Assembly (NCBI GenBank): GCA_016181175.1
Contig: JACOZV010000001.1
Span: forward strand, 259,519 to 323,518
DNA length: 64,000 bases
Source of the DNA: Candidatus Yanofskybacteria bacterium
Lineage (GTDB): Bacteria; Patescibacteriota; Minisyncoccia; 2-02-FULL-40-12; IGHO2-01-FULL-4-A
Direction: 5' to 3'
Part shown: in pieces, positions 22,429 to 45,574 of the stretch
How the letters are laid out: every line of letters begins with the position of its first letter
Numbering within the stretch: position 1 is the stretch's first letter
Notes under the pieces: generated by a model
Seen by the model: the letters and a program-made list of their open reading frames with translations, nothing else
Told to the model about the DNA's origin: nothing
The model's database searches: none
Program-made: the position numbers and the translations under genes

Positions 22429-22560
22429 GCTTTTACCTCGTCAAGTTTTGGATTGTTAATAGTGCTAATAAATGGATACCCAATTTCAGGAATAATTGCA
22501 ATAGAATTTGTAGATGCCCCATTTTCACGACTTTAATTAAGTGTTAATCTAACGGGATGA

Positions 22561-22691
22561 ATCCCGAACGAGACAGCCTTTGCCAACAACAAGGAAGGGT
22601 TACGATGGCTATCTAAACGGGATTAATAAAGTATTTTTAATAGGCACGGAAATGATTTACTCAATAAATCATTTCCTGTCTCGTACGGGAT
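22561..22691 (+). mobile_element. Family A non-autonomous element (A1) at the start codon of the downstream gene
   Basis: ATCCCGAACGAGACAG ... CTGTCTCGTACGGGAT; GA duplication; the right end supplies the ATG at 22690. Confidence 0.85.
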
Positions 22692-23652
22692 GAGACGATA
22701 CCTATTTTTATTAATTCAGATTGTTGTCAGCGCGATGCTGGTTTTTTTTATTTTTCAAAATATTCATTTCGGTGACCTCTCGGGAGCGTTTAAGAACGTG
22801 CAGATAGAATATATTTTTATTGCTTTGGTGTTTTCCATTCCCGCGTGGCTTGTGGGTATTTTCAAATGGCAATTCCTGGCCAAAACCATCGTGGACAAAA
22901 CCCCGCCTTTTAGATTTTTTATTTCATACTATCTTGTGGGATATTTCTACGCTTTATTTGTGCCAGGCGGCCAACTTCTAGGCGAAGGAATGAAGGCTTG
23001 GAGGATGTCTAACAAGTCAGAATTCAAACCCCAGTTGTATTTATCGGTTTTTGCCGATAAGGCCATAGGTTTTATGGCTCTAGGCTGTCTGGTTTTAATA
23101 TCTTTTTTGACACAGCCTGTTTTATACGGCGACAGATTGAGTATTTTGAGTCTCGCGGTAAGTGCCGCCATTGTGCTGGCCGGTATTATGATTTTCTTCA
23201 GTCGCGTTTTGCTGGAATACTTTTATAAGGTTCCTGAATTTTTAGTCAAATTTTTGCCGTTATTTATAGCCGGCCACGTCGCCATTTTAAAGGGACTTCT
23301 CATTAAATACAATCAGCGCAGAAAATCTACTCTTATAGGTATCGGAATCGGAGCCATTGCACAGCTTATATGGGTTTTGGTTATATATTTTATTGCCCTC
23401 TCATTTAATCTCCATGTACCATTTTTATTTATTGCCTGGACTTTTTTGATAATGTCTGTAGCCACTTTTCTGCCGGTATCCTATGCCGGCTTGGGAGTGA
23501 GAGAGGGAACGTTTGTCTATTTTTTTTCGTTGTTGGGCGTATCCCGTGAGCTAGCCTTAAGCATATCGCTTATGCTATTCGGTTTTCAGGTGCTGGCTGC
23601 TTTAATCGGGGGAGGTTTTGAATTAAAAGAATTATGGAGTAGAATAAAATAA
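22690..23652 (+). CDS. Lysylphosphatidylglycerol-synthase TM domain / putative glycolipid flippase (UPF0104)
   Basis: PGG..GE..K and LPVSYAGLGVRE motifs; about 8 TM helices. Confidence 0.8.
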   Translation: MRRYLFLLIQIVVSAMLVFFIFQNIHFGDLSGAFKNVQIEYIFIALVFSIPAWLVGIFKWQFLAKTIVDKTPPFRFFISYYLVGYFYALFVPGGQLLGEGMKAWRMSNKSEFKPQLYLSVFADKAIGFMALGCLVLISFLTQPVLYGDRLSILSLAVSAAIVLAGIMIFFSRVLLEYFYKVPEFLVKFLPLFIAGHVAILKGLLIKYNQRRKSTLIGIGIGAIAQLIWVLVIYFIALSFNLHVPFLFIAWTFLIMSVATFLPVSYAGLGVREGTFVYFFSLLGVSRELALSISLMLFGFQVLAALIGGGFELKELWSRIK

Positions 23653-23658
23653 AATCAC

Positions 23659-25956
23659 ATGCGCGAGCTATTACTAGTCAAAATCACTAAATATTTAGTT
23701 TATGCCACGGCCTTTGTGCCGTTGATTATATTCTCGCAATTCATATCGCCATTCCATTTCGGCAAAGTGGTGGTTTTTCGTTCGCTTGTGGAGATAATGG
23801 CCGTTTTTTATTTTATTCTGATCATCAAAGACAGAGGTTATTTTCCCAAAAAGCATATACTTCTGACAATTTTCTCTCTTTTCACGCTGATTTTTGTCAT
23901 TTCAACTTTTATCAGCGTCAACCCTTATCTAAGTTTTTGGGGTTCGCTTGAACGTATGGGCGGACTCTGGAGTTTTATCCATTATCTTGTCTATTTCATA
24001 ATTCTTATTTCCATATTCAAGACCCGCGAGGACTGGCTGCGGTTGTTTAAGATAGTTATTTTTGTCGGAGCTCTTTCCGCGTTTTATGGTTTTGGCCAAA
24101 AGACAAATATTGAATTTTTCATAGGTTCTGGGAAACGCGAGAGGATATTTGGCACTATCGGCAATGCCGCTCTGTTTGCTGGTTATCAGATTATAATTTT
24201 ATTCCTTGCTTTGTCTTTGGCTCTTTCTTCTTGGGTATCGACTAAACACAGAGGTTATTTTTTTACCGCCGCTCTTATAAACACAGTTGCTGTTTTAATG
24301 ACTGCCGTTAGGGGTTCTATATTGGGTGTTGGCGTAGGTTTTTTACTTTTTGCTTTCCTTTACACTATTTCTTCTCATTCGCGTACGGCAAAAAAGATTT
24401 TATTGGGCTTGGTCGGTTTGGCTGTTATTTTTGTCGGGTTTGCTTTTGCTTTCAAAACCTCCAATTTTGTAAAAAGTTCCGGTTACTTGACGCGTTTGAC
24501 TGATTTTTCATTCCAGACGCTTACGGTTCAAACTCGTTTTTGGGCTTGGCGAGCTGGGTTAACCGGCTGGGTGGAGACACCAAAAACAATTTTATTCGGC
24601 TGGGGTCCGGAAAACTTTAATGTCCCTTTTTCCAAGCATTTTAATCCCAAGTTTTTCCGCGGTATTGGTTCTGAAACTCTTTTTGACCGTGCCCATAATC
24701 AGTTCGTTGAGATTTTAGTAACAATGGGCGCATTGGCATTTCTGCTCTATATAGCCCTGTTTGCTGTAGCCATGCGTTTGTTGTGGAAACGCGTAGTGCA
24801 AAACGGAAAAGAAAGGGCGATTGGTGTGGGTTTGATATCTTTAATTACCGCATATATTATTCACAATTCATTCATATTTGACACCTCGGCTAATTTTATA
24901 ATATTTTTTACGGTTTTAGGTTTTATTGCATGGTTGACCCCGCACCTTTCTGCGGCAGGTAACATGGGCTTGCGCGAAGCGCAGCCGCAGAAAGGTGCGG
25001 GGCAAGCCCCCATTACCAGTTACCAGTTACCAGTTACCAGTTATAAATTAACCGTCGGTCAACAAACCCTATTGTTTCTTTTGCTGATTGGCGCGGCAGT
25101 CCTGATTTATCGGACGAATATCACGCAGTCCAAGGCTAATTACACAACCACACGTGCCATTGTTAGAAGTTGGTCTGGGGATTTTGATGGTGCTTTGGCT
25201 AAGTATAAAGAAGCGTTGGCTTACGATATACCCGGCAAATATGAGTATCGCCACCGTTTTGCCCAGTGGCTTCTTGAATATGCAAATGGCAAAAAACGGG
25301 GAGAAAAAGAAGAGGCCGCTTTGACGTATGCCATACAGCAAGTGCAGAAAAATGCTGATGAGTCTAATCAGGACTATTTACCATATCTTTACATTTCGCG
25401 TGCCTATATAATTTTAGGCAAAGACGATCTGAAATCGCCGTATAACGACGAAGCATTAAAAAATTCTATGAAAGCATTGGAAATTTCTCCAAGTTTTGTA
25501 AGAGCGTATTACGAAGTAGCGCAGGCTTTTCTAAATAAAAAAGATTATAGCAATGCTATAAAATATTTTGAGCAGGCAGTTAAATTAAACCCCGATGTTG
25601 GTTTGAGCCATTGGTACTTGGGGGCAATCCTAATAGAAACGGGCGATATCGAGGGGGGATTAAAGGCGGTTAGCAGAGCCACTGAACTGGGTTATATGCT
25701 TTCCGAATCCGATACCTTAAGACTGATCAACCTTTACATTAAAACCGGCGATCTTAACAAAATAACTTTCCTTTTTGAGAGATTGATTAGTATAAAGCCC
25801 AATAACCCGCAATATCGTGCTTCGTTGGCGGCAGGTTATGCAAAAATCGGAAAAATAGATGAAGCAGTTGAACAGGCACGTGCCGCTGCTCAACTAGACA
25901 AAACTTTTGAAAGTGAAGCTCGTTCGTTTGTGCGGAGTTTGGGCAGGGAGTGGTAA
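23659..25956 (+). CDS. O-antigen ligase-family membrane protein with C-terminal TPR repeats
   Basis: GTIGN, RGS, G.GPENF, DRAHN motif; TPR helices at the C-terminus. Confidence 0.85.
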   Translation: MRELLLVKITKYLVYATAFVPLIIFSQFISPFHFGKVVVFRSLVEIMAVFYFILIIKDRGYFPKKHILLTIFSLFTLIFVISTFISVNPYLSFWGSLERMGGLWSFIHYLVYFIILISIFKTREDWLRLFKIVIFVGALSAFYGFGQKTNIEFFIGSGKRERIFGTIGNAALFAGYQIIILFLALSLALSSWVSTKHRGYFFTAALINTVAVLMTAVRGSILGVGVGFLLFAFLYTISSHSRTAKKILLGLVGLAVIFVGFAFAFKTSNFVKSSGYLTRLTDFSFQTLTVQTRFWAWRAGLTGWVETPKTILFGWGPENFNVPFSKHFNPKFFRGIGSETLFDRAHNQFVEILVTMGALAFLLYIALFAVAMRLLWKRVVQNGKERAIGVGLISLITAYIIHNSFIFDTSANFIIFFTVLGFIAWLTPHLSAAGNMGLREAQPQKGAGQAPITSYQLPVTSYKLTVGQQTLLFLLLIGAAVLIYRTNITQSKANYTTTRAIVRSWSGDFDGALAKYKEALAYDIPGKYEYRHRFAQWLLEYANGKKRGEKEEAALTYAIQQVQKNADESNQDYLPYLYISRAYIILGKDDLKSPYNDEALKNSMKALEISPSFVRAYYEVAQAFLNKKDYSNAIKYFEQAVKLNPDVGLSHWYLGAILIETGDIEGGLKAVSRATELGYMLSESDTLRLINLYIKTGDLNKITFLFERLISIKPNNPQYRASLAAGYAKIGKIDEAVEQARAAAQLDKTFESEARSFVRSLGREW
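24938..25002. mobile_element. Family B non-autonomous element inserted in frame in a CDS
   Basis: 19-bp inverted repeat CCCCGCACCTTTCTGCGGC; same GGTTGACCCCGCACCTTT left junction as the 9167 element. Confidence 0.75.
25013..25040 (+). repeat. Heptamer tandem repeat (TTACCAG)x4 within a CDS
   Basis: Four perfect copies read directly from the sequence. Confidence 0.9.
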
Positions 25957-25969
25957 GCGTGTTTTGGGT

Positions 25970-26968
25970 TTATATGACTTTTCCCTTGGCTACTAACTTC
26001 ATATCCGATTCAACCATCATTTTGACCAAATCTTTGAATTTTGTTTTGGGTTTCCAGCCGAGAATTTTGCGGGCTTTGGAATAGTCGCCAATTAGTAGAT
26101 TGACTTCGGATGGACGAATGTCGGCTGAATTATTCCATACGATATATTTTGCCGGATTAAGTCCGGCAACCCTGAACGCTTCTTCGGCAAATTCTCTAAC
26201 CGAGTGATTTTCTCCGGTAGCGATAACATAATCATCGGGTTTTGGCTGCTGCATCATCATCCACATGGCTTGAACAAAATCCCCGGCATAGCCCCAGTCA
26301 CGCTTAGCGTTTGGATTGCCGAGATATAACTTACTGGCTAGGCCGTGTTTGATAAGCGCGGCGGTGTGAGTAATTTTTCTGGTCACGAATTCTATACCGC
26401 GGCGAGGACTTTCGTGGTTAAAAAGTATGCCGCAAACGGCAAACATCTTAATAGCAGGATGGTTACGGTAGTAGCGCGTCATATGATGGCCGGTAACCTT
26501 GGATATTCCGTAAGGGGATCGCGGGTTAAACGCGGTCAGTTCAGTTTGCGGCACCTCCAGGACGTCCCCGAACATCTCGCTTGAAGCTGCGAAGTAAAAC
26601 TTTGCCTTTGGTACGATTTGGCTTATAGCCGCTAAAACAAAATGCACCCCAGAAACATTCGTGTGCATTGTTGAATGCTCATCTTCAAAAGAGTAAGAGA
26701 CAAAACTTTGTGCGGCTAAGTGGTATACCTCGTCGGGTTTTACTTTGGTTAAAACGTTGCAAATACTCGGGTAGCTTTCCAAGGATGCGCCATGCAGTTT
26801 AATGCGACCAGTTTTGATTAGATGGTTAATCCTGGAAAAGCGGTTATCGCTGTCCTCAAAAGCAACCCGGCGTACCATGCCGTGAACCCGATAGCCTTTT
26901 TTTAATAAAAATTCGGCTAGATAAGAGCCGTCTTGGCCAGTTATTCCCGTTATTAGTGCCTTTTTCAC
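25970..26968 (-). CDS. gmd: GDP-mannose 4,6-dehydratase
   Basis: ALITGITGQDGSYLAE, LAAQSFV, PRSPYGISK, FNHESPRRG, RDWG. Confidence 0.95.
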   Translation of the reverse strand: MKKALITGITGQDGSYLAEFLLKKGYRVHGMVRRVAFEDSDNRFSRINHLIKTGRIKLHGASLESYPSICNVLTKVKPDEVYHLAAQSFVSYSFEDEHSTMHTNVSGVHFVLAAISQIVPKAKFYFAASSEMFGDVLEVPQTELTAFNPRSPYGISKVTGHHMTRYYRNHPAIKMFAVCGILFNHESPRRGIEFVTRKITHTAALIKHGLASKLYLGNPNAKRDWGYAGDFVQAMWMMMQQPKPDDYVIATGENHSVREFAEEAFRVAGLNPAKYIVWNNSADIRPSEVNLLIGDYSKARKILGWKPKTKFKDLVKMMVESDMKLVAKGKVI

Positions 26969-27041
26969 TTTTTTAAGTTATTAAACATTGGTTATATTGT
27001 CAATCTTGTTTTTGGATATAAATATGTCATAATTTTTTTGG

Positions 27042-27527
27042 ATGAAACTTAGAGAACATCTGATAATTGGCGTTGTGTCTGTGATTATTTTAACTCCGCA
27101 TTGGGGCCTGTGGCGGGCGCTTTTATTTTGGGGAGCGGAGGTACTGATAGACGCCGACCATTATTGGGACTATTTGTGGCGGAGCAAGTTTCAGGATTGG
27201 AGCGGTTGGCGGATGTTTAGGTATTATAACCGAATAACCGAGCACATGCATGATAAAAACTTTTTTGCAATCAGCATATTGCATACCGTCGAAGTTTTTA
27301 TCGGCGTGTATTTGTTGGCCAGTTATTGGAATTACAACTTTTTTATGACGATTTTTTGGGGGTTGGTGTTTCATCTGATTTTGGATATGATTTATCAGTT
27401 GAAACTCAAATGCTTCTTCGTTCGCGCCTACTCAATAGTTGAGTATTTAATTCGCAAACGTTTAATGCTTAATCGCGGCCTCAACCCCGATGGCTTTTAC
27501 AAAAAAATGTTTGAGCTGTCAAAGTGA
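27042..27527 (+). CDS. Membrane protein, possible metal-dependent hydrolase
   Basis: EH, D.DH, LH, HL.LD pattern among TM helices. Confidence 0.6.
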   Translation: MKLREHLIIGVVSVIILTPHWGLWRALLFWGAEVLIDADHYWDYLWRSKFQDWSGWRMFRYYNRITEHMHDKNFFAISILHTVEVFIGVYLLASYWNYNFFMTIFWGLVFHLILDMIYQLKLKCFFVRAYSIVEYLIRKRLMLNRGLNPDGFYKKMFELSK

Positions 27528-27994
27528 ATTTGACAGTATTTTCACCGGTGCTAGACTAAATGTCATGAAGAAGGATTTAAATAAAAAAGATAAATTAGTT
27601 ACCGAAAGTATTCTAGAGCGGAAACTTAAAAATGCGCTCGAACCTTATGTTACCAAGGATTTCTTGAAGAAAGAGTTTGTCAGACAAAACGAAAGAAATT
27701 TGGCGATTTTTGCGACCAAGCAAGACCTGAAAGAAGGATTGGGTGGGCTAGAAGAAAAAATGAATTGGAAGTTTGATAAATTACTAACTGCTTCAGAAAA
27801 AATATACGCCAAGCTGGAAAAGAAAGAACTTGAGGGTGTGGTGCATAGCTACCTCCACAAATCTGCAGAAGACCAATTGGCTAACCACGACAAACGAATC
27901 ACAAATCTTGAAAAAACTGTCCTGACGCAATGAGCTTTACCGCAGCCTCAACCCCGATGGCTTTTACAAAAAAATGTTTGAATTTTCAAAATAA
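27467..27994 (+). repeat. 61-bp direct repeat (27467-27527 / 27934-27994) duplicating a gene 3' end
   Basis: 37-bp identical core GCCTCAACCCCGATGGCTTTTACAAAAAAATGTTTGA; both copies end in a stop codon. Confidence 0.85.
27565..27933 (+). CDS. Small coiled-coil hypothetical protein
   Basis: VTK.FL / ATKQDLK repeats, HDKRI.NLE; TTGACA..TAGACT promoter just upstream. Confidence 0.65.
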   Translation: MKKDLNKKDKLVTESILERKLKNALEPYVTKDFLKKEFVRQNERNLAIFATKQDLKEGLGGLEEKMNWKFDKLLTASEKIYAKLEKKELEGVVHSYLHKSAEDQLANHDKRITNLEKTVLTQ

Positions 27995-28024
27995 CACTTG
28001 CCCCCATCAAAAATTATCGCTCGC

Positions 28025-28167
28025 CATTATGCCTCCTATCACCATTTGAATTCCCAGCGAGAATTCTACATTCCGTCAAAAGCGTGGATTTTGCTCGCAG
28101 TGTTTTACTATTATACTGCTCGCAAACCGTGCAATCCACTCTTTTGACGGTGCTATGAGGCATAATG
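28025..28167 (+). repeat. Family E element (E3)
   Basis: CATTATGCCTC/GAGGCATAATG outer stem; GAATTC-CCAGCGA-GAATTC hairpin; CCGTCAAAAG..GTGGATT inner stem. Confidence 0.85.
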
Positions 28168-28229
28168 CTTTGACCGAATTAGAAAAATAAAAACCGCCTC
28201 AGCCATGAAAGCATCGACGGTAGATTTAT

Positions 28230-28661
28230 TTATAAAGGAAAACGCTTGAACCTATCTTCATAGGTACGCATAAGTTCATTAAACTCCCGTTCGGTTATAC
28301 CAAGTTTTTCCCAAGAAATTTCACCGCAATGCACCCCTTTTCTAATGGCGGTGGCAGATGCTCTTGCATGATAAGGATAGTTTGCTGCACGACGGAGTTC
28401 TTTTAATGCCAAGGGGTAATAAAGAAGCTTGTTTTGTAAAACCAGTTCTTTTAATTTCCCCGGCGTTGTTCCAAGCTCTTCCCATGAAATAACGGCATCA
28501 GAAACAGAAGATAGAATTTCTTGAGCCGAATATTCAGCGTGGAATGGTAACATTCCAAGGCAAAAATGAATCATATTTCGCAGTTGCTTAATATTTTCTA
28601 GTGCTATTCTTTTTCTTTGCTTACGAGTAGGCTTGTTTTGTAATGTTTCACACCTTGTCAT
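28230..28661 (-). CDS. Hypothetical protein with an internal duplication
   Basis: ISWEELGTT / ISWEKLGIT repeated; AGGAG RBS. Confidence 0.6.
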   Translation of the reverse strand: MTRCETLQNKPTRKQRKRIALENIKQLRNMIHFCLGMLPFHAEYSAQEILSSVSDAVISWEELGTTPGKLKELVLQNKLLYYPLALKELRRAANYPYHARASATAIRKGVHCGEISWEKLGITEREFNELMRTYEDRFKRFPL

Positions 28662-28831
28662 TTTAATCTCCTATTTTTAAAAAACTAGTTTAAAACAGCA
28701 TAGCATAAATAGTGATATGTTGTCAAATTTTTGCTATGTTTCAGAATGCTTTCTCAAAAATTAAAAAACCTAAGCCGTCAACAGACGGCGGTTTTTATCA
28801 CTCCCATAATTGTTAAGGAGAGGATGTCAGT

Positions 28832-28907
28832 TTCCGGCGCAGGCGGACCCTTTTTGTGAAAAATCCCAGCAGGGTGGATTGAACAAAAAGGGTCCGCGGA
28901 GCCGGAA
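28832..28907. repeat. Intergenic GC-rich palindrome
   Basis: TTCCGGC..GCGGACCCTTTTTGT / ACAAAAAGGGTCCGC..GCCGGAA. Confidence 0.6.
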
Positions 28908-28949
28908 GATAAACTATTATGCTACCTTATTTTAATTTTTGAGGTCTAA

Positions 28950-30284
28950 CTAGCGGAATGCTTTTTTTAAGAGGATATTTATTGTTTTAAGTAAAATTCC
29001 CAGGTCTAAGATCAATGACCTGTTTTTTATGTAAAACAAATCATGCTGGAGTTTTTCATACGTATCTTTGATGGTCATGCCGCCGCGGAAGTCCAGCTTA
29101 TATTTGATTTGCGCCCAACCGGTCAGTCCCGGCTTGACCAAGTAGCGTTCTTCGTAAAAAGGGATTTCAGATTTTAATTTCTGGTGGAACTCGGGTCTTT
29201 CCGGGCGAGGCCCAACAAATGACATTTCGCCGCGCAATATGTTCCAAATTTGCGGTAGTTCGTCAATTCTTGTTTTGCGCAAAAACTTGCCGACTCGCGT
29301 AGTTCGAGCATCATTTTCAGCGGCCCAAATCGGACCCGTACTTTTTTCAATCTCCTGAAACATTGTCCTGAACTTTATTACGGTGAAAATTTTGCCGATT
29401 CGTCCCATTCGTCCTTGGTGATAGAAAACTTGACCACGCGAATCAAGTTTTATAGCTAAGATTATCAAGGGATAAAACGGCAGGGTCAGCAGCCCTATGA
29501 TTATGGTGCCGATTAAATCTAAAATTCTTTTTCCAGTTTCGTATCCGCGTCGGCTACCCTGAGAGAGGTTTTCCAAAAACCAAACCTGATCTATAGTTTC
29601 CAGTGGTATTCTTCCGGCAACTCGTTCATAAAAATCGGACAAGTTGAAAAAATTTATCCCAAAACCTACCAGGTGGTAAAACACGTCTATTATGTGCGGT
29701 ATCTTATAAACCGTCGGAGCCAGAACCAATGTCCGGATATTTTTTCTCTTAATCAGGTTGTCTAAAATTGCAGAAGCGGTTTTATCTCCAATATCAAGTA
29801 TGCCTAAGACGCCGTATCCCAGTTGTGGATTATTCAACAAAAAGTCGTAAAGCTCTTGAGATTGTTGACTCAAGCCGACTATTAATGTATTATTTTTGTA
29901 GCCGTTTTTGGCGGTGAGCCGATTAAAGAAAAAGCGCCAAAATCCTTGTAAGGCTGCAATAATGACAATAAAAACAAATAAGTTGGTTTTGGGGGCGATT
30001 CTAAAAAACTGGACAAAATAGAAGAAAAAAATAGAGATAGACGAAATAACGGCAATTGTATAAAAAAGATCGGAAAAAAAGCGGGCGTTATTTTTAGAAA
30101 GACCTATTTCATACAGATTGGAAATATAAAAAACTATTACCCAAACAACAAAAATAATGGTGAACGGTAGAAAGTGCATGCTGATCTGCTCGTCAAAACT
30201 ACGCCCATACCTTGCATAGAGGGTCAAAAAAAGCGCTAGATATAGGGTAATAATGTCGCCCAAGAAGAGTAAAAATTTACGCAT
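28950..30284 (-). CDS. Polyprenyl glycosylphosphotransferase (WcaJ/WbaP family)
   Basis: [34 protein letters not shown]; true start likely MRKFLL at 30284. Confidence 0.9.
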
Positions 30285-30381
30285 CCCGTACGAGACAGGA
30301 AATGATTTATCTGAGTAAATCATTTCCGTGCCCATTTAATCTACTTTATTAATCCCGCCTAGATAACCATCGTAACCATTT
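30283..30381 (-). mobile_element. Family A element (A2), truncated, lacking the left inverted repeat
   Basis: About 95 bp similar to the reverse complement of 22598-22691; supplies the ATG of the WcaJ-like gene. Confidence 0.8.
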
Positions 30382-30382
30382 C

Positions 30383-31345
30383 GGTATTGGAATGGTGGGG
30401 GAACCGATTAAAAGGTGGTTTGAAGAAAACCAAAAATATAGACGCGGAAAGGAACTGTTTTGTTACGATGCCGATCCCAAAAAGGGTTATAGCGATGACG
30501 TTAATTTGGCTGATATTATTTTTGTTGCCGTACCGACACCAACAAATCCTGATGGTAGCTGTAATGTTTCTATTGTACAAAGCGTTACCTCAACAATTAA
30601 TGACGGTAAGATCGTGATTATTAAATCTACAGTGCCGCCGGGGACAGTGGAGGGGCTGCAAAAGAAATATCCTAGCAAGAAGTTTGTTTTTAATCCGGAA
30701 TTTTTAACCGAGTCACAAGCTTGGCTTGATTTTATAAAGCCAAGCCGTCAGATTCTTGGCCACACAGCCCGAAGCTATGCTGACGTAAAAGAAATTATGG
30801 CTTTGCTTCCTCAAGCGCATTTTGAGCGCCCCTGGGCGAGTGATTATAGCAAGAAAGATATCAACGCTACCGAAGCGGAACTTGCCAAATATGCCAGCAA
30901 CGTTTTTGGCTATATCAAGGTAATTTATGGCAATATTTTAGCTGATCTGTGCCATGCTCTCGCAGTCAATTTTAAAAACAATAAAATAAATTCGGAAGTT
31001 ACCTACGAAAATATAAAAGAAGTTATTTCTGCAGATCCCAGAATCGGCCCGGCATGGCTCAATGTGGAGCATGGCAATTATTGCGGAGCCGGCGGATATT
31101 GTTTTCCCAAGGATATGAACGCCCTGATAAGTTTTGCAGAAAGTTTGGTTAAAGACTTGTCCAAGAATAAAAAGAACTTGGATTTGGTCACTTCTTTAAA
31201 AAAGGGTGTAGCTGTTTTAAGGGCTGTTACGGATTACAATAAGTCAATTCTTAATTTGCAGGGATTAACCATTGAAGATGTCTCGCGTCACGATAAAGAA
31301 ATTATTACGCTAAAACGCAAGCCGATACGAGTTAGAAAATCATAA
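30383..31345 (+). CDS. ugd: UDP-glucose/GDP-mannose dehydrogenase family protein, N-terminally truncated
   Basis: GIGMVG, FVAVPTP, KSTVPPG, NPEFL, GGYCFPKD; first beta strand missing. Confidence 0.75.
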   Translation, partial: GIGMVGEPIKRWFEENQKYRRGKELFCYDADPKKGYSDDVNLADIIFVAVPTPTNPDGSCNVSIVQSVTSTINDGKIVIIKSTVPPGTVEGLQKKYPSKKFVFNPEFLTESQAWLDFIKPSRQILGHTARSYADVKEIMALLPQAHFERPWASDYSKKDINATEAELAKYASNVFGYIKVIYGNILADLCHALAVNFKNNKINSEVTYENIKEVISADPRIGPAWLNVEHGNYCGAGGYCFPKDMNALISFAESLVKDLSKNKKNLDLVTSLKKGVAVLRAVTDYNKSILNLQGLTIEDVSRHDKEIITLKRKPIRVRKS

Positions 31346-31349
31346 AAAA

Positions 31350-32369
31350 ATGATCGATCAAATTATAAAAAAACGAAAAAAAGCAGTGGTAACCGGCGGG
31401 GCTGGTTTTATCGGGTCGCACTTAACGGACGCGTTGATAAAAGACGGTTTTGACGTTGTGGTTTTGGATAATCTTTCAACCGGCAAGAGATCGCAAGTCA
31501 ATAAAGCAGCCAAGTTCGTCAAAACAGATATCCGGAATCTTAAAAAAATCAAGCCATATTTCAAAGGAGCGGAATTGGTTTTTCATACCGCGGCTCAAGC
31601 GCGAATGCAGCCATCAATAAAAGATCCGACCCTTACTTTGGATAATAACGTAACAGGAACACTCAATGTTTTAATTGCGGCTAGCGATGCCGGAGTTAAG
31701 CGGTTAATTTACTCGGCTTCGTCTTCTTTTTACGGCGATCAAGAAACAGTGCCGTTTCATGAAGAAATGACACCAAATTTTAAAAATCCTTACGCGCTAT
31801 TCAAATATGTGGGTGAAAAACTATGCCAGCTTTTTACCGATTTGCATGGCTTAGAAACCGTTTCTTTAAGATATTTTAATGTCTATGGTCCGAGGCAATT
31901 GTCATCCGGTAATTATGCCACGGTAATTGGTATTTTTCTAAAACAAGAAAAACAGGGTAAGCCCCTTACAATTGTTGGTGATGGTAGAATGCGTCGAGAT
32001 TTCACACACGTTTATGATGTGGTAAGGGCAAATATGCTGGCGGCCCAATCCAAGAAAGTAGGCAGGGGTGAAGTAATAAATATCGGACCCGGCAAAAGTT
32101 ATTCAATAAACGAAGTGGCGGCAATGATTTTGGCACCAGATACATTCCAGTCGATGGGCGGTTCGCAGGCCAGAACCGTTGCAATTGAAAATTCACAACC
32201 CGAAGTTGTGCTTGCGGCCGCTCTTAAAAGTAACCGTGCTAAATATATTCCCCCGCGTATTAATGAATCTCAGCGCAGTTTAGCTAATAACTCAAAAGCC
32301 CGTGAACTTCTCGACTGGAAACCAACAATTTCATTTGAAGACGGCTTGGCGATGTTAAAAAAAATTTAA
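31350..32369 (+). CDS. NAD-dependent nucleotide-sugar epimerase/dehydratase
   Basis: VTGGAGFIGSH, YALFK, RYFNVYGPRQ, RDFTHV.D. Confidence 0.9.
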   Translation: MIDQIIKKRKKAVVTGGAGFIGSHLTDALIKDGFDVVVLDNLSTGKRSQVNKAAKFVKTDIRNLKKIKPYFKGAELVFHTAAQARMQPSIKDPTLTLDNNVTGTLNVLIAASDAGVKRLIYSASSSFYGDQETVPFHEEMTPNFKNPYALFKYVGEKLCQLFTDLHGLETVSLRYFNVYGPRQLSSGNYATVIGIFLKQEKQGKPLTIVGDGRMRRDFTHVYDVVRANMLAAQSKKVGRGEVINIGPGKSYSINEVAAMILAPDTFQSMGGSQARTVAIENSQPEVVLAAALKSNRAKYIPPRINESQRSLANNSKARELLDWKPTISFEDGLAMLKKI

Positions 32370-32436
32370 TTTATCTACTTTGAAGCAATTAAAAACCGGC
32401 TAGGCCGGTTTTTAATATTAGTGTAAGATTATTAGA

Positions 32437-34212: not shown

Positions 34213-34237
34213 TTTTTTCAAAATTGGGAGGATAAAT

Positions 34238-35449: not shown

Positions 35450-35476
35450 GCTTCTTCGCGCCGGAAGGCGTACTCC

Positions 35477-35501
35477 GAAAACCCCGCGTTGCGGGGTTTT
35501 C
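35477..35501 (+). terminator. Intrinsic terminator
   Basis: GAAAACCCCGC/GCGGGGTTTTC hairpin. Confidence 0.65.
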
Positions 35502-35529
35502 AATTTGTTTATTTTGTGATAAATTATAG

Positions 35530-35692
35530 GGGCTTAGCGAATAATACCTTCTATCACCATTTGTCGCCCCAGCGAGGCGACTGCATTCCGTCAAAAATAT
35601 TAATTTTGATTTTGTTGAAGAAATATTGTAACAAAATCAAACCATGCAATTAACACTTTTGACGGTGCTATAAGGTATTATTCGCTAAGCCC
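35530..35692 (+). repeat. Family E element (E5) with 21-bp perfect outer inverted repeat, 8 nt before hpf
   Basis: GGGCTTAGCGAATAATACCTT and reverse complement; GTCGCC-CCAGCGA-GGCGAC hairpin. Confidence 0.85.
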
Positions 35693-35700
35693 GTTCATAT

Positions 35701-38768: not shown

Positions 38769-38810
38769 GGATAAAAAACCGTTGGTTGGACCAACGGGTG
38801 ACAAAAAAAT

Positions 38811-39107
38811 TTACTCTCTAATTGGGCAGACAATTCTAGTTTCTTTGCCATTATTTTTAATGTGCCTATCTTGAGGATTTTGGAGGTCAATTGCCGATTT
38901 GCAGTTGGGGCAAGTCTTCAGATTGTTCGGGTAAACAAATTGCCCGCATTCCGTACACCATTCCACAATAGTGCCATTGCGCTTTATTCCATAGCGGAAA
39001 GGAGAATTGCCGCAGAGCGGATGGAAGCGTCCTTTGTTGGGGCACAGGTCTTTAATTCCTAAGCTGCGTGCATCTTCCTCAAGCTCACTAAGCATTTTAG
39101 ACCTCAC
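38811..39107 (-). CDS. Small Cys-rich hypothetical protein (Zn ribbon)
   Basis: CTECG, CPNCK; GTG start. Confidence 0.5.
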   Translation of the reverse strand: MRSKMLSELEEDARSLGIKDLCPNKGRFHPLCGNSPFRYGIKRNGTIVEWCTECGQFVYPNNLKTCPNCKSAIDLQNPQDRHIKNNGKETRIVCPIRE

Positions 39108-39161
39108 CTGATTTTAAGCCGCTTTCATGTTTAAAATTAACTGTTAATATTAATAGAGTCA

Positions 39162-39235
39162 ACCCCGTTAGAAGTCTCGCTCGTGCCTAATGGCACGAGT
39201 CCGAAGGACATCGGCGAGGCCACTTCTAACGGGGT
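39162..39235. mobile_element. Family C palindromic element (C1) with CA duplication
   Basis: ACCCCGTTAGAAGT/ACTTCTAACGGGGT; CA on both flanks; internal hairpins. Confidence 0.8.
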
Positions 39236-39276
39236 CAACCCGTCCCCACTTGGAAAGCATTTGCTTTTTATCTTTC

Positions 39277-39720
39277 ATGAAAAACAAAAATAAAATTATT
39301 ATAGTCGTGTCAGGCGGTATGGATCCGCTTCATCCGGGCCACATACGTCTTTTCCAGGAAGCCAAGAAGTTGGGCGATGAGCTTGTTGTCATTCTAAATA
39401 ACGACAACTGGTTGAAAAAGAAAAAAGGTTACGTGTTTATGTCTGAAAAAGAACGCAAGGAAGTCATTGAGGCAATCAAGGGGGTTGATCGGGTAATTCT
39501 TACTAAACATTCGTCTAAGACGTTAGATATGAGTGTGCGTGCCGAACTGAAAAAAATTCGGCCCCACATTTTTGCAAACGGCGGCGACAGAAACGAAGGT
39601 AATATTCCAGAAATTGCTGTTTGCAAAAAAATAGGATGCAAGGTGGTTTTTAATGTCGGACGAGGAGGCAAAATCGCTTCAAGTTCTAAACTTGTTGCCG
39701 GCTTTGCAAAAGAAAGTTAA
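39277..39720 (+). CDS. Cytidylyltransferase-family nucleotidyltransferase
   Basis: SGGMDPLHPGH (HxGH), ANGGDR, K..SSS; likely start MKNK. Confidence 0.85.
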   Translation: MKNKNKIIIVVSGGMDPLHPGHIRLFQEAKKLGDELVVILNNDNWLKKKKGYVFMSEKERKEVIEAIKGVDRVILTKHSSKTLDMSVRAELKKIRPHIFANGGDRNEGNIPEIAVCKKIGCKVVFNVGRGGKIASSSKLVAGFAKES

Positions 39721-39726
39721 TAATGA

Positions 39727-39849
39727 ATCCCGAACGAGACAGCTAATTTTTACCTTGCTAAATAATTGCCGTGTTATTAGTTGTCATTTATGGCGGGATT
39801 ACTTATAATCAACGGAAATGCATAAAGCATTTCCTGTCTCGTACGGGAT
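39727..39849 (+). mobile_element. Family A non-autonomous element (A3) at a start codon
   Basis: Same 16-bp inverted repeats as A1; GA duplication; supplies the ATG at 39848. Confidence 0.85.
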
Positions 39850-40408
39850 GAATATTCAAAAAGTAATTTCGGAGACGAGAGATATATTTCTCAAGTCGGA
39901 CGTGTCTTTACCGCTTTTGCTTAAAATAAAAACCACCGAGCTGGTTTTGAATCTTATGGCCCATCAAAAAAATTTTGGTCTTTTTATAATACTTGGCTGG
40001 CAGGATAAATGGCAGGAATATACGGATATTTCTGATGCCGCTCAGGATATTTTTGTTGCTCACCGCATAAACCTGAACGATATAGAAAATCACTCTGATT
40101 GGTATCTTGAGGTGGAGTCTACGGTTGGTTTTGACGGTGCTATCCTGATAGATGGTAACGGCGTGATACAACACTCCGGCGTTATATTGGAAGGTTTGCG
40201 TCCCCGAATGGTTGCCGACGCGATAAATCCGGGTCAGTTCAAGGACTTGTCAGAACAGTTTGGTTTCAAGCAAAAAGTCCATTCAAGACATCTTTTTGCC
40301 ATTACTTCTTCTCATGTTTTTAAAAATACCGCCGTTTTTACTGTTTCTGAAGAGAACAACACTTTCCACATTTTTGAAGCCGGAAAGATTGTTTACTCAA
40401 CAGACTGA
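39848..40408 (+). CDS. Stand-alone DAC/DisA_N (diadenylate cyclase-like) domain protein
   Basis: FDGAILIDG.G, SRHLFA (RHR-like), FTVSEE. Confidence 0.7.
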   Translation: MNIQKVISETRDIFLKSDVSLPLLLKIKTTELVLNLMAHQKNFGLFIILGWQDKWQEYTDISDAAQDIFVAHRINLNDIENHSDWYLEVESTVGFDGAILIDGNGVIQHSGVILEGLRPRMVADAINPGQFKDLSEQFGFKQKVHSRHLFAITSSHVFKNTAVFTVSEENNTFHIFEAGKIVYSTD

Positions 40409-40794
40409 TGCAATTTAAACCTCCTAAAAACGACGATAAATACCAGTGGACTAACCATGTTAAAGGCAAGATGGTTTATTACGGGATTTCTGAAAGTTTA
40501 ATAAAACGTATAACTAGATTTCCTAAACGTAAAGAAGTTGGCATTGCGACCAATACCGTTGCAGTTATGCAGTCGACTAGCAACAAGAATAAACCGCAAG
40601 AAGTGTGGGTGATGTTTCAACCCGTGGGTTCTGGACGCACAAGTAACAATAAGTCACCGGTTTTTGATTTCAAGCAAAATAAGATAAGAATAATTTCCGC
40701 GTGGCGTTACCCCGGCGTAAGTCCGGTTGGCAAAACCGTACCCATACCCGATGAAATTTTACAGGAACTTAGCAATTTGATAGAGTTGGCTTAA
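40408..40794 (+). CDS. Conserved hypothetical protein
   Basis: [19 protein letters not shown]; translationally coupled to its neighbour. Confidence 0.65.
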
Positions 40795-40795
40795 C

Positions 40796-41476
40796 ATGAA
40801 AATTTTAGTTTTACTTTTCGCAATAGCGGTCGTAGCCCTTGGTGGTTATTTTGCCATGAAGAAAGGTGGTGGCGTCAATGTAAGCGCATCGCCAGAGCCG
40901 TCACCGACACCGACTGCTCCTGTAGACATTCAGTCACAAGAACCATTGCCAGATGTAGTCAAAGCCATACTGGTAACCGCTCGCGGCAATATTGAGCTTG
41001 AACTTTACCAGAAAGTGGCGCCCAAAACCGTTGCTAACTTTGTAAAATTAGCCGCATCGGGTTTCTACGATGGCACCAAGTTTCATCGGGTCATTGACGA
41101 TTTTATGATACAAGGGGGCGATCCATTATCTAAAACTGACGATCCTCGCGTGGGCACAGGCGGGCCCGGTTATCAATTTGAAGACGAAATTAACCTCAAA
41201 TCACTTGGCGCTCCGGATGAACTAATTGCCCAATATGAAGCGCAAGGTTATAAATATAGCAACATCCTTCAGTCATTGCCTGTGGATCCGGGTTACATTG
41301 CCATGGCTAATGCCGGACCTAATACCAATGGCAGTCAGTTTTTTATCGTGACAACTAAACCCCAACAACATCTCTATGGCAAACACACGGTATTTGGCAA
41401 AGTGGTTAAGGGAATGGATGTGGTGTTAAAAATCAAACAGGGAGATTTATTAAAGAAGGCAGTTGTTAATTTTTAA
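40796..41476 (+). CDS. Membrane-anchored cyclophilin-type peptidyl-prolyl isomerase
   Basis: [44 protein letters not shown]. Confidence 0.95.
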
Positions 41477-41525
41477 ACATTGATATTTATTTAAAAATTA
41501 AAAATTGGAAATTAAAAATTCTTGA

Positions 41526-42233
41526 ATGTCGTTTGTAAGAACCTCAAAACTACTAAAAATATCCCGCGCCAATATTCAGCTGATGAAAGAATGTCCGCGC
41601 TGTTTTTGGTTATACAAGCATAAGGGTATCGGTCGGCCGCAGGGCTATCCGTACACGCTTTCAATAGCAGTAGACCAGTTGCTTAAGCATGAGTTTGACG
41701 AGTATCGGGAGAGGGGAGAGATGCACCCGGTTTTAGTTGGATTTGATGGGCTGGCGGAAGCTCATCTTTTTTCTGACCAAGGACAGCTTCAAAAGTGGCG
41801 CAATAATTTTGAAGGACTTAAATACCACGACGAGGGTCTGGATGCCACGCTTTTCGGTGCGGTTGACGATATGTTGGAGTTTTCCGATGGTTCGCTTGCG
41901 GTGATAGATTATAAATCTTCAGGTGCCAAGGAAATATCCGTTTATGATGATTACAAAATGCAGATGGATGTCTATACGTATATTTTGGAACAACTCGGTT
42001 ATAAGACTGCCCGAAAAGGGTATTTCGTATTTTTTCAGGTAGACAAAACAGACGGTTTTAGAGGGCGTTTGCCGTTTCGTGGTGAAATACGTGATGTGGA
42101 TGCTGATCCAAGCTATATTTATGATCTTTTTGCTAAGGCCGTTACCTTGGCTCGTTCAGACAATCCACCTCCGTCTCATGCCGAGTGTCAATATTGTATG
42201 TATGCGGAGCACCATAAACATATAAATGAATAA
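41526..42233 (+). CDS. PD-(D/E)XK nuclease family protein
   Basis: CPRC, GAVDD..IDYKS, QM.VY, C-terminal C..C. Confidence 0.85.
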   Translation: MSFVRTSKLLKISRANIQLMKECPRCFWLYKHKGIGRPQGYPYTLSIAVDQLLKHEFDEYRERGEMHPVLVGFDGLAEAHLFSDQGQLQKWRNNFEGLKYHDEGLDATLFGAVDDMLEFSDGSLAVIDYKSSGAKEISVYDDYKMQMDVYTYILEQLGYKTARKGYFVFFQVDKTDGFRGRLPFRGEIRDVDADPSYIYDLFAKAVTLARSDNPPPSHAECQYCMYAEHHKHINE

Positions 42234-43689
42234 AATGGTTGATAAAAAACCAAAACTTACCGGCGAACATTTTTATAAATTTTTCCAATGTCCGCATTGG
42301 ATTTGGTATGATATCTATGCCGATCAAACCAAAAAGGGTGGAATTCCTCCTCTGATAGAGATGATTCACCGGGGCGGTCTCAAGCATGAAAAAGAAATGA
42401 TCCAGACGCGCAAGTTTGAAGAAATAAAGCCGGAACTTTTTCGCGATCTTGATGAAGCTTTTTTGTCTACGCTTGAGCTGATGAAACAAGGGAAAAATAT
42501 CTACCACGGTGTGTTGATGGATCAGAATTGGGTTGGCATTCCGGACCTGCTTGAAGCGCGGCCAGTGGAGAAAGGAATGAAATCTAACTTTGGTGACCAT
42601 TACTATGTTGTATATGATGTTAAAACCGGCAAAGAAATGCGTGACGAATACAAATTCCAGCTGGTTTTCTACAGTTTAATTTTGGAACGACTGCAGGGGG
42701 TTTTGCCGCGCGATGCTTTTATCGTCAACTCTGACGGCGAGGAGCGTTCATTCATGGTTGATGACTTTCTTGACTATTTTCACTTGACCAGGGAGAGAAT
42801 TGAACGAGTTTTGGCCGGCGAAAAACCGCCACCATTTCTTAAAAGTGGCTGCAAGCAATCGCCATGGTATTCACTTTGTGTTGATGAGACAAAGGGTTGC
42901 GACGATGTCTCGTTGATTTACAGGTTGAGCCAGAACGACCAACGGCGTTTTTATGAACTTGGTATACATAGCGTAAAAGATTTGGCTTCAGCCGATTTGG
43001 ATAACTTACGTTCGCGGCTTGAAGACTGGCCGTTTGATAAAATCCTGCGTTTTTATAATCAGGCCCAAGTACTGGTTTCAAACGAGCCAAAAGTTCTCAA
43101 GAAAAGCGAGTTTCCTCAAGTAGAAAACGAAATATATTTTGATATTGAATCTGATCCAACGGAGGGCATCGATTATCTTTTTGGGATGCTCATAAAAAGC
43201 GGAAACAAAAAACCCGAATACAAATATTTTTTGGCACAGGATAAAAAGGACGAGGAAAGGGTGTGGCGTGATTTTTTGGATTTTCTCGAATCTCTTAATG
43301 ACTTTGTCATTTATCACTATTCTTATTACGAAAGAGAAGTTTTTAAGCGTTTGGGCAATGAATATGGTATTTCAGTGGCGCTTGAAGATAAGTTCAAAAA
43401 TAATACAATTGATTTACACTGGAAATTTATTGAAGCAGCAGTTTTGCCAATTTATTTTTACAGCCTAAAAGATGTTGCCAAGTATCTTGGCTTCAAATGG
43501 CAGGCCGATGACGCTGGCGGAGCAGAATCGGTGGTTTGGTACAATGATTGGTTGCAGAAGCATGACCAAAAAATCATGGACAAAATCATCAAATATAATG
43601 AGGACGATGTAAAAGCTACACTGTTTCTCAAGGAGTGGTTGGATAAACAAAAACCCCGAACAAGCAAGGAGCGACTGCCGGAAGACTAG
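42226..43689 (+). CDS. TM0106-family RecB-like nuclease with RNase H-like C-terminal domain
   Basis: G.PDLL..YDVK..QL.FY, YFDIE, YSLK.VA..LGF.W, YNEDDV.AT. Confidence 0.85.
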   Translation: MNKMVDKKPKLTGEHFYKFFQCPHWIWYDIYADQTKKGGIPPLIEMIHRGGLKHEKEMIQTRKFEEIKPELFRDLDEAFLSTLELMKQGKNIYHGVLMDQNWVGIPDLLEARPVEKGMKSNFGDHYYVVYDVKTGKEMRDEYKFQLVFYSLILERLQGVLPRDAFIVNSDGEERSFMVDDFLDYFHLTRERIERVLAGEKPPPFLKSGCKQSPWYSLCVDETKGCDDVSLIYRLSQNDQRRFYELGIHSVKDLASADLDNLRSRLEDWPFDKILRFYNQAQVLVSNEPKVLKKSEFPQVENEIYFDIESDPTEGIDYLFGMLIKSGNKKPEYKYFLAQDKKDEERVWRDFLDFLESLNDFVIYHYSYYEREVFKRLGNEYGISVALEDKFKNNTIDLHWKFIEAAVLPIYFYSLKDVAKYLGFKWQADDAGGAESVVWYNDWLQKHDQKIMDKIIKYNEDDVKATLFLKEWLDKQKPRTSKERLPED

Positions 43690-43778
43690 TGTTTATATTA
43701 AAACAAGAAAAAAATCAGCTTATGCTGATTTTTTGGTGACTTGATTTTTAAATAATAGTATTTTACTATCAAATTTAA

Positions 43779-43892
43779 TCCCGTTAGAAGTCGCCCTAAC
43801 GGGTTCGCGGTCATAATTAGCAAATAATTTAAAGTCTTATTGTTTAGCCGTAACTTATGTATAAGGCTACACAGTAGCGACTTCTAACGGGA
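43779..43892. mobile_element. Family C palindromic element (C2), 3 nt before the secD start
   Basis: 16-bp inverted repeat TCCCGTTAGAAGTCGC/GCGACTTCTAACGGGA. Confidence 0.75.
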
Positions 43893-43895
43893 CAA

Positions 43896-45287
43896 GTGTT
43901 ACGTAGATTTACTCCATTGATAATTTTAGCCGTTGCTCTGTTTTTGGGCGTTTTTGCTTATCCTCAAGGTTGGGATATGGGCGCGGACATAGTAAATTCA
44001 AAACTCAAAATCCAAAATTCAAAATATAAGATTCCACGTATGTTTAAAATTCCGCCATTTCGTCTTGGTCTTGACCTGTTGGGCGGTACCCACTTAGTTT
44101 ATCAAGCCGATTTGTCTGGAACCGAGGGTCAAAGCGCTGGTGACGCTATGTCTGGTGTGCGTGACGTTATCGAGCGCAGAGTTAATCTTTTTGGCGTTGC
44201 AGAACCGTTGGTGCAAATTGAAGGCAACGATCGTCTTGTGGTGGAATTGGCCGGCATCAAAGATGTAAATCAGGCAATACAGATGATTGGTCAGACGCCA
44301 TTTTTGGAATTCAAAGAAGAACGTCCGTCAGAAGAGTCGCAAAAAATTATTGAAGCCCAACAAAAAGGTTCATCCAGCACCAGTTTGGACAGCCCCGAAC
44401 TGGTGCTGGACAAGCAACAGTTTGAAGATCCGTATTTTAAGCCAACCGGTTTAACCGGTCGATATCTTAAGCGTTCCCAATTGACATTTGATCAGACAAC
44501 ATCACAACCGGAGGTTTCGCTGGAATTAAACGACGACGGAGCAAAATTATTTGCTGAAATTACAAAGCGAAATATTGGGAAGCGTGTTGCAATTTATGTT
44601 GACGGCGTGGGCATAAGCGCACCGACGGTTCAAAGCGAAATTCCAAGCGGTCGTGCCGTGATCAGTGGCAGTTTTTCCATAAAAGAAGCCAGGGATTTAG
44701 TTAACAATCTTAATGCCGGGGCACTGCCGGTACCGATAAATTTAATTTCACAACAGACGGTGGGCCCTTCTTTGGGGCAGGAATCACTGCAAAAATCATT
44801 GACGGCCGGCTTATACGGATTGCTTGCGGTAGCCATTTTCATGATATTGTTTTACCGTTTGCCCGGCCTTGTGTCAGTTGTCGCTTTGTTGGTGTATGTT
44901 GCAATTGTTCTGACTGTCTATAAAGTAATTCCGGTAACGCTGACTTTGGCCGGAATAGCAGGTTTTATATTGTCTTTGGGTATGGCTGTGGATGCCAATA
45001 TTTTGATTTTTGCCAGAATGCGCGAAGAGTTAAAGGCTGGCAATTCTTTAGCACAGTCATTTGCAAGCGGTTTCCACCGAGCTTGGTACTCAATCCGTGA
45101 CAGTCACGTTACAACTTTGCTCGGCGCTTTTGTGCTGTATGCTTTTTCAACATCTGTGGTTAGGGGATTTGCTTTGACGCTTGGAATCGGAGTTTTGGCA
45201 AGTTTGTTTACGGCCATTGTTATTACTAAATCATTTTTAAGGTTGTTTATTGGACACAAAATGGAGAAAACAAAGTGGATGTTTTAA
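43896..45287 (+). CDS. secD: Protein translocase subunit SecD
   Basis: LGLDLLGG, IERRVNLFGVAEP, GALPVP, GMAVDANILIF.R. Confidence 0.97.
   Translation: MLRRFTPLIILAVALFLGVFAYPQGWDMGADIVNSKLKIQNSKYKIPRMFKIPPFRLGLDLLGGTHLVYQADLSGTEGQSAGDAMSGVRDVIERRVNLFGVAEPLVQIEGNDRLVVELAGIKDVNQAIQMIGQTPFLEFKEERPSEESQKIIEAQQKGSSSTSLDSPELVLDKQQFEDPYFKPTGLTGRYLKRSQLTFDQTTSQPEVSLELNDDGAKLFAEITKRNIGKRVAIYVDGVGISAPTVQSEIPSGRAVISGSFSIKEARDLVNNLNAGALPVPINLISQQTVGPSLGQESLQKSLTAGLYGLLAVAIFMILFYRLPGLVSVVALLVYVAIVLTVYKVIPVTLTLAGIAGFILSLGMAVDANILIFARMREELKAGNSLAQSFASGFHRAWYSIRDSHVTTLLGAFVLYAFSTSVVRGFALTLGIGVLASLFTAIVITKSFLRLFIGHKMEKTKWMF
44373..44410. mobile_element. Family D palindrome in frame within secD
   Basis: TCCAGCACCAGTTTGG/CCGAACTGGTGCTGGA encoding SSTSLDSPELVLD. 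Confidence 0.7.
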
Positions 45288-45289
45288 AT

Positions 45290-45574
45290 ATGAATCCCAA
45301 ACGAGACAGCAAAACCATGTTTTATACATATGTTTTAAGAAATAAAAAAAGCCGCTTTTATGTTGGTTTTACTTATGATTTACGGAAACGCTTCAATGAA
45401 CATAATAATAAAAAATCAACTTATACAAAATATCGTGGCCCATACGAACTTATTTACTATGAAGCTTGTCTTGATGAGAATGACGCTCGTTAAAGAGAAA
45501 AGTATTTTAAATCTGGAACAGGTAAACGCTACTTCAAAAACAGATTGAAGCGTTTCCTGTCTCGTACTGGATGA
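45290..45574 (+). pseudogene. GIY-YIG endonuclease with a single in-frame TAA (45491-45493)
   Basis: FYTYVL..FYVGFT.DLRKR..EHN..DAR*REKYFKSG..FLSRTG*; terminal TGA overlaps the secF ATG. Confidence 0.85.
45294..45572 (+). mobile_element. Family A element carrying a GIY-YIG nuclease (A4) between secD and secF
   Basis: ATCCCAAACGAGACAG ... CTGTCTCGTACTGGAT; GA duplication; supplies the secF ATG. Confidence 0.85.

Follow-up and report, generated by a model that had tools for sequence, protein, structure and literature searches.

Start-codon placement of a minimal GIY-YIG element family and its non-coding derivatives in Patescibacteria

Several described systems resemble, each in some respects, the element family considered here. 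[quoted passage not shown] GIY-YIG homing endonucleases, such as I-TevI and the Seg enzymes, are selfish genes whose insertion spares the host gene. Slx1, HIGLE and UPF0213 (YhbQ) proteins are host or repair enzymes of the GIY-YIG fold without TIRs. Here we describe family A, a set of inverted-repeat elements located at gene starts in a Candidatus Yanofskybacteria bacterium (NCBI GenBank assembly GCA_016181175.1). The window analysed is a stretch of 64,000 nucleotides (contig JACOZV010000001.1, positions 259,519 to 323,518 of the forward strand), and the analysis extends to the whole genome (776 kb) and to its relatives.

Two systems call for closer comparison. In the accessible part of its description (PMC8141618), IS900 of Mycobacterium avium subsp. 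paratuberculosis targets translation initiation signals, and an element open reading frame (ORF) lacking its own ribosome-binding site and start is expressed from host signals; the element measures 1,451 bp, has a DDED-family transposase and carries hed as a second ORF on the other strand. Family A is likewise inserted at host initiation signals, but its full-length copy in the window measures 277 bp, encodes a GIY-YIG protein only (the DEDD transposase that marks the IS110/IS900 group is absent), is bounded by TIRs and a 4-bp duplication, and rebuilds the host ATG itself. IS900, whose enzyme is unrelated, offers a functional precedent for such borrowing of host signals. The Ssn nucleases (SsnA; Chenal et al. 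2025, PMC11893778), the closest in biochemistry, are, in the accessible part of that article, single-domain GIY-YIG proteins of about 94 aa tied to structured repeats, whose layout the authors regard as insertion sequence (IS)-like and compare with IS200/IS605 and repetitive extragenic palindromes (REPs); that part of the article links them neither to mobility nor to start codons. Unlike the Ssn arrangement described there, in family A one TIR pair encloses the gene and overlaps its codons, a 4-bp target is duplicated and the site is a start codon. The SRM motif, searched as its published degenerate pattern, occurs in 0 of 130 element regions and twice in the whole genome. A literature search that covered few subscription papers returned no description of this family. 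The start-codon element is real and widespread, and apparently undescribed.

The placement of family A at start codons is established. In this genome, all 15 right ends (15/15) are part of an ATG that opens an ORF of at least 118 aa (range 118-1050 aa), which is not a random placement, and the genes concerned include rplD-, ssb- and rpoB-like ORFs (we take the N-termini to be those of RplD, Ssb and RpoB). An initial annotation of the window had proposed that family A targets start codons on the basis of four copies, hereafter A1 to A4 (Table 1); all four do end in GGA followed by TG, and the three complete ones are preceded, as it had noted, by ATGA (ATGAA in each case). The pattern extends to the class. 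When 401 genomes were scanned with a pattern ending immediately 5' of the TG, 40 genomes matched, and among the 77 matches outside this genome, all of which were examined, 71 right ends are followed by TG, none (0/77) shows a flipped target, and 67 precede an ATG-led ORF that has at least 60 aa or is open to the edge of the locus. One further end precedes a 38-aa ORF, presumably RpmJ-like, and match L180 looks like a chance match. In metagenomes, scanned with a pattern fixing the T and leaving the G free, all 31 matches (31/31, at 24 distinct sites) are followed by G.

Relatives support three of the four starts in the window as true ones. Among 29 relatives, the secF start is an ATG at the same codon in 26, a TTG in one, a GTG in one and an ATG one codon earlier in one. 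The secD-secF junction lacks the element in all 29, with gaps of -1 to 121 nt, and in one relative it reads TAA-AT-ATG, the very layout predicted here upon removal of the element. Similarly, the WcaJ-like gene has the same start codon in 4/4 orthologues, one of which, in another genome, carries a sister element at the same ATG. The DAC-like orthologues start 1-2 codons later (5/5), and the single orthologue of the LPG-synthase-TM gene has ACA at the corresponding codon.

The target genes number in the dozens and are unrelated. Three near-identical intact copies occupy three different gene starts in one genome (L035-L037), and different subfamilies are found at the same genes in different genomes: an ssb-like gene is targeted in this genome and at L101, L245 and L260, and an rpmJ-like gene in this genome (contig C6, 64833) and at L257.

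Full-length elements measure 275-282 bp, with 13-14-bp TIRs that show covariation (boundaries were set as TCCCG...CGGGA) and one gene, their only ORF, encoding a GIY-YIG protein of 85-95 aa. The empty derivatives (116-141 bp) have the features of MITEs, being short, non-coding, multicopy, bounded by TIRs and flanked by target duplications. Excluding ends with N, without a detectable left end or from L068, both flanks are readable in 119 copies: the duplication is 4 bp long in 88, 3 bp in 12, 5 bp in two and 2 bp in one, and is absent in 16. The 88 4-bp targets comprise 64 TGAA, 10 TGGA and 8 TGAG. Thirteen cases have a fourth target base other than A, and in 10 of them this base is duplicated; A1 (TGAA on the left, TGAG on the right) is among the three that differ; a model with a 2-bp duplication was rejected on this ground, although these three cases still fit it. 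As the TG lies within the 4-bp host target duplication, the element donates only the terminal A of the ATG, not the whole codon as initially annotated. Some sites have GTGG or GTGA on the left and ATG on the right, and conversion of a GTG to an ATG start is therefore seen directly.

Whether family A recognizes starts as such is a separate question. The target context is that of starts in general except at positions +4 and +5 (A at 0.85 and 0.88, versus 0.38 and 0.34 in generic starts), and no upstream target motif was found, the Shine-Dalgarno sequence included (5% of targets have a similar sequence, versus 14% of all called starts). Starts might thus not be sensed at all, the distribution resulting from an oriented RTGRA target of 4-5 bp together with purifying selection against insertions within genes in gene-dense genomes. 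Such an asymmetric target would fix the orientation unaided; genes are indeed hit, since in-frame copies of 50- and 71-bp sister elements with related ends are found within them, and longer insertions there are presumably purged; and 8 of 13 scored sites have less than 52 nt of non-coding DNA upstream. Yet in this genome starts make up only 0.15-0.43 of tolerated TGAA sites and 0.42-0.73 of ATGAA sites. Under the most lenient null, which relies on rough gene calls in one genome and treats related copies as independent, the observed counts have p values of 0.009 (15/15) and 6e-7 (68/71). In addition, a positional cue is hinted at by some copies with different duplications, which lie in the same orientation 3-5 nt 5' of a start (L253, L259 and two sister copies here). 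The data thus suggest that starts are actively sensed, and the account by target and selection alone, though a serious competitor, seems to us somewhat the less probable. Of the initial claim of targeting, it is the placement that stands.

The nuclease is, judging from its alignment, conserved: 17 positions are invariant among 64 aligned homologues, including Y14, Y24, R34, H38, E58 and R69. The ORF of A4 matches the GIY-YIG family (PF01541) with 46.3 bits against a cut-off of 22.6 (E 5e-12), and no NCBIfam model scored above its cut-off (TIGR01453 reached 17-23 bits against 56). The predicted structure is a bare GIY-YIG domain with a predicted local distance difference test (pLDDT) score of 86. 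Its best sequence matches are 1zg2 and 1ywl, and its best fold matches are 1zg2, Slx1 and HIGLE (Z 7.5, root-mean-square deviation 3.3, 83 aligned residues), the nearest proteins overall being UPF0213, Slx1 and HIGLE, a Z score below 8 being taken as likeness of fold only and not of function. Named relatives are Patescibacteria, and a profile search across the phylum retrieved homologues at E<=1e-30 in 3 of 151 genomes. In the nuclease tree, copies with GTAC-type ends fall together on one side, with good support (100/99). This genome also carries six more small GIY-YIG genes with other flanks (contig C3 at 49792, 111623 and 268699, C1 at 119906, C4 at 8308 and C6 at 75820), one of them within a 23S rRNA region and one beside a tRNA-like sequence.

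The initial annotation had further proposed that the element takes over the host start to express its nuclease and re-initiates the host gene by translational coupling. The ATG at 45290 is in frame with the GIY-YIG ORF, as stated, and more broadly, of 45 intact full-length copies at an ATG (a set partly drawn from a search seeded with an in-frame N-terminus), 24 can be read in frame from the retained upstream ATG, another 17 are out of frame, and the upstream start has been lost in 4. The nuclease has lost its own Met in 7 of the 24 in-frame copies versus none of the 17 out-of-frame ones, which keep their own ATG (Fisher p 0.029). On the tree, this loss requires 6 changes, at least 4 of which are forced by well-supported branches, with the bootstrap not fully settled. 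The inner Met is also absent in 13 of the 75 homologues with a TIR-encoded N-terminus, among the 120 listed of 164. Host-start capture is therefore real but optional: the proposed mechanism fits many intact elements well and is not general.

As for coupling, the nuclease stop is a TGA overlapping the host ATG in 42 of the 45 intact copies. The overlap annotated at secF is a different matter: the nuclease ORF of A4 is interrupted by an internal TAA 78 nt 5' of secF, so that it is not coupled to secF today, and the overlapping TGA is the ancestral stop. Contigs of three runs from one study, one of which may be the source sample, cover this TAA without differences; no RNA dataset was present among the sequencing runs listed. 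Reading from upstream also stops early in 42 of 49 MITEs, and host genes, rplD-, ssb- and rpoB-like ORFs among them, hence persist without such coupling. Among MITEs in the nuclease phase, 7 of 14 are open to the overlapping TGA (0.8 expected), while none of the 35 in other phases is (1.3 expected). Three of these seven look like one subfamily. The figures lend modest support to the idea that coupling is kept in some cases, or that read-throughs of other kinds are purged. Coupling, through putative re-initiation, would be a bonus for new insertions and not a requirement.

A hairpin just before the ATG of the empty copies had been noted initially as a possible tuner of host translation. It is present where indicated (Table 1), but it is not specific to MITEs. 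In full-length elements, an 11-bp stem pairs the codons for LRKRF with those for KRFL next to the right TIR, across a loop of about 150 nt. Over 47 of 52 full-length sequences (the motif could not be placed in the other five, A4 included), Watson-Crick pairs occupy 504 of 517 positions; shuffling of the partners, which ignores kinship, gave 450 +/- 5, and at most 468 in 5000 shuffles. Up to four pair types occur at a single stem column, including synonymous sites and coupled amino-acid changes, and the hairpin differs between MITEs through paired changes. The distance from the stem to the left end is 77-93 nt in 58 MITE copies and 82-94 nt in full-length elements, while the spacer sequence drifts. 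Because a long-range stem covaries within the nuclease gene, the hairpin is probably a mobility signal. Tuning of host translation is not the simplest reading, and the role first assigned to the hairpin is probably wrong. On the sense strand, 19 G-T pairs versus 8 A-C pairs (p 0.05) weakly suggest that this is the strand that folds.

Other properties of the hairpin region were considered. A3 has a sigma-70 promoter match (11/12, window 39781-39809) just 5' of its hairpin. A promoter borne by the family was rejected: 2 of 54 copies match versus 2.7 after shuffling, and the reverse strand shows the same -10 excess. An apparent phase avoidance by hairpin ATGs (20/19/3) was left uncounted, as it derives in family A from about seven loop lengths and, in one end type, from a stop that is fixed. 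Rfam models at gathering scores retrieved only a tRNA in the window.

In the reading that we consider best (probability roughly 0.55), family A represents a minimal Patescibacteria insertion element of about 277-280 bp, mobilized by its Slx1/YhbQ-like nuclease and accompanied by MITE derivatives. The element sits one way at the A^TG of a start, with a preference for TGRA. The nuclease would recognize a folded single strand, made up of the terminal stem and the inner stem stacked on it, and cut at its base; a staggered cut of 4 nt would then receive the piece, with sealing and gap filling left, as we assume, to host ligase and repair. The 4-bp duplication leaves the old ATG upstream, while the terminal A and the duplicated TG remake the host ATG. 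An intact element would be translated from the captured host start (in about half of the copies, sometimes solely) or from its own ATG, and the nuclease stop over the rebuilt ATG would allow the host gene to be re-initiated. MITEs form when the DNA between the stem arms is lost, and about 85-93 nt separate their left end from the stem. Starts would be chosen through the oriented short target and removal of in-gene insertions, probably with a positional cue. A fuller version is put forward only tentatively: the element of about 280 bp would be autonomous, its GIY-YIG protein of less than 100 aa would be a new type of transposase acting on folded single strands, and it would find starts by a positional cue (for example a displaced sense strand or an initiation complex), capture the host start and rebuild the ATG.

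Several points weigh against mobilization by the nuclease. GIY-YIG enzymes are hydrolases, and we know of no joining activity among them. No intact cognate nuclease was found in this genome at E<=1e-30; the only close one is the broken A4, and the family A copies here are therefore probably stranded. The duplication is sometimes missing or a base short, as counted above, the shuffling of stem partners neglects kinship, and the evidence for the folding strand is thin. No joint skipping a whole copy was seen among contig joints (15 of 39 shown). The survey of other enzymes covered six transposase or reverse transcriptase (RT) families in five element-rich genomes, which are incomplete drafts, and it detected Y1 in 3/5 and RT in 2/5.

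Another view is that the nuclease is a passenger or maintenance gene, with a different transposase moving the TIR elements in trans. TIRs and 4-bp duplications are the classic products of DDE enzymes, a joining step, not known from GIY-YIG enzymes, would be supplied, and about 50 TIR elements persist in this genome with only a broken cognate gene. In the five element-rich genomes, on the other hand, DDE_Tnp_1, DDE_Tnp_1_4 and DEDD_Tnp_IS110 (PF01548) were each detected in 0/5 and rve in 1/5, and none of the six families is common to all five. A passenger would also fit poorly with a conserved nuclease whose codons contain the right TIR and the inner stem, and with GTAC-type ends that group on one side of the nuclease tree. 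We regard movement in trans as unlikely.

An RNA route, in which translation starts would receive a structured RNA copy of the element, or the mRNA or ribosome would be read, appears more doubtful still. It would account for the strict sense orientation and the slight excess of G-T over A-C pairs on that strand, and this genome has an RT gene, as does the one that carries three recent copies. RT was not found in three of the five element-rich genomes, the TIR boundaries are exact at both ends, and SsnA is inactive on RNA according to the accessible part of its description (PMC11893778). Finally, the strong regulatory view, by which hairpin and coupling regulate how the host gene is translated and empty copies are retained for that reason, has in its favour the open nuclease-phase MITEs and the essential genes downstream, and is improbable given the early stops in most MITEs, the resemblance of three of the seven open copies to a single subfamily, insertion sites that are not conserved between relatives, a stem already present across its long loop in full-length elements, and the lack of a family-wide promoter.

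Measured against established groups, family A shares TIRs and target duplication with classical ISs (DDE, DEDD or HUH) and lacks their transposases. To our knowledge, no IS family uses a GIY-YIG gene as its sole gene. Compared with Correia, RUP and ERIC, its coding parent is without a known transposase, its placement is at start codons and its orientation is fixed. Unlike homing endonucleases, which act at one conserved site, it has many unrelated targets, TIRs and duplications, with neither an intron nor an extra DNA-binding domain, and the secD-secF site is empty in relatives.

Table 1. Coordinates of family A features in the window (position 1 is its first letter).
Feature	Position	Strand	Remark
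A1 upstream ATG and left target 4-mer TGAA	22557..22561	+	old ATG kept
A1, 129-bp non-coding MITE, TIRs TCCCG...CGGGA	22562..22690	+	final base supplies the A of the LPG-synthase-TM ATG
A1 inner hairpin, stacked on right TIR	22648..22676	+	
A2, right ~100 nt of a copy, without left TIR	30284..30382	-	final base supplies the A of the WcaJ-like ATG
A2 hairpin	30327-30298	-	
A3 upstream ATG and left duplication TGAA	39723..39727	+	
A3, 121-bp MITE	39728..39848	+	final base supplies the A of the DAC-like ATG
A3 inner hairpin	39814-39834	+	
A3 right duplication TGAA	39849-39852	+	
Original secF ATG and left duplication TGAA	45290..45294	+	now in-frame nuclease start
A4, 277-bp full-length element, both TIRs slightly decayed	45295..45571	+	final base supplies the A of the secF ATG
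GIY-YIG nuclease gene of A4, own ATG at 45317	45290..45574	+	in-frame TAA at 45491-45493
A4 inner stem, left arm (11-bp stem, LRKRF codons)	45384..45394	+	
A4 inner stem, right arm (KRFL codons), adjoining right TIR	45547..45557	+	
Ancestral nuclease stop TGA, overlapping secF ATG	45572-45574	+	
A4 right duplication TGAA	45572..45575	+	source of the TG of the secF start

Pfam assigns the genes downstream of the four copies to LPG-synthase-TM (A1), Bac_transf (WcaJ-like, A2), DAC (A3, a match with E 8e-5 that lies below the Pfam cut-off) and SecF (A4); the upstream ATG of A4 lies 2 nt after the secD stop. Directly 5' of the A1 upstream ATG is the right-end remnant of a sister element (window 22547-22556). 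The same stacking occurs at L043, L045, L090 and L260, and a tandem at L235; such stacked ends suggest that one start may be hit repeatedly. The 100 or so nucleotides of A2 are identical to the copy preceding the ssb-like gene of this genome (contig C3, about 131837-131940). Both copies (A2 at window 30284-30400) break at the same five bases, and the neighbours of both are cut, at the N-terminus of a UDP-glucose dehydrogenase-like protein (A2) and at the C-terminus of an RpsF-like one (ssb-like copy). A scaffolding error seems to us somewhat more likely here than two real deletions.

Several related or neighbouring repeats were observed in addition. Sister elements with a TTGA duplication (window 39162-39233; contig C4 at 95859, C6 at 100092 and 104555) lie directly 5' of TTGAC-type, -35-like hexamers, an observation made without a chance control; three of the four have CCCCG...CGGGG ends. 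A 50-bp family shares the family A TIR and is not located at starts (contig C3 at 64946, 196636 and 240703), two of its copies being in frame inside genes. Longer related elements with CCCGG...CCGGG ends (L070, L084, L092) duplicate TATG, so that the whole ATG is in the duplication. At L046, L049, L062 and L088, apparently one conserved locus, TAA comes after the right end of the nuclease element, with a further left end immediately adjoining it. A 114-bp sister element (window 43778-43892, contig C3 303297-303410) sits 3 nt 5' of the secD GTG, so that both the secD and secF starts carry elements. The window also contains a second, unrelated inverted-repeat family of about 170 bp (7130-7335, 17929-18099, 28019-28167 and 35530-35692) and a 50-nt exact repeat (52398-52537) that duplicates part of a tRNA gene 90 nt apart. 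Viral contigs yielded two isolated matches and no element, and searches around two element-rich genomes gave no further sites.

The carriers of these elements are ultra-small groundwater bacteria. Through insertion at a start codon that it rebuilds, selfish DNA can spread in such streamlined genomes and leave essential operons (secDF, ribosomal-protein and rpoB-like genes) intact. If the nuclease mobilizes the element, this would represent a new transposition chemistry in an unusually small package, and an inserter of less than 300 bp that leaves the gene at its start codon undisrupted would be a useful tool.

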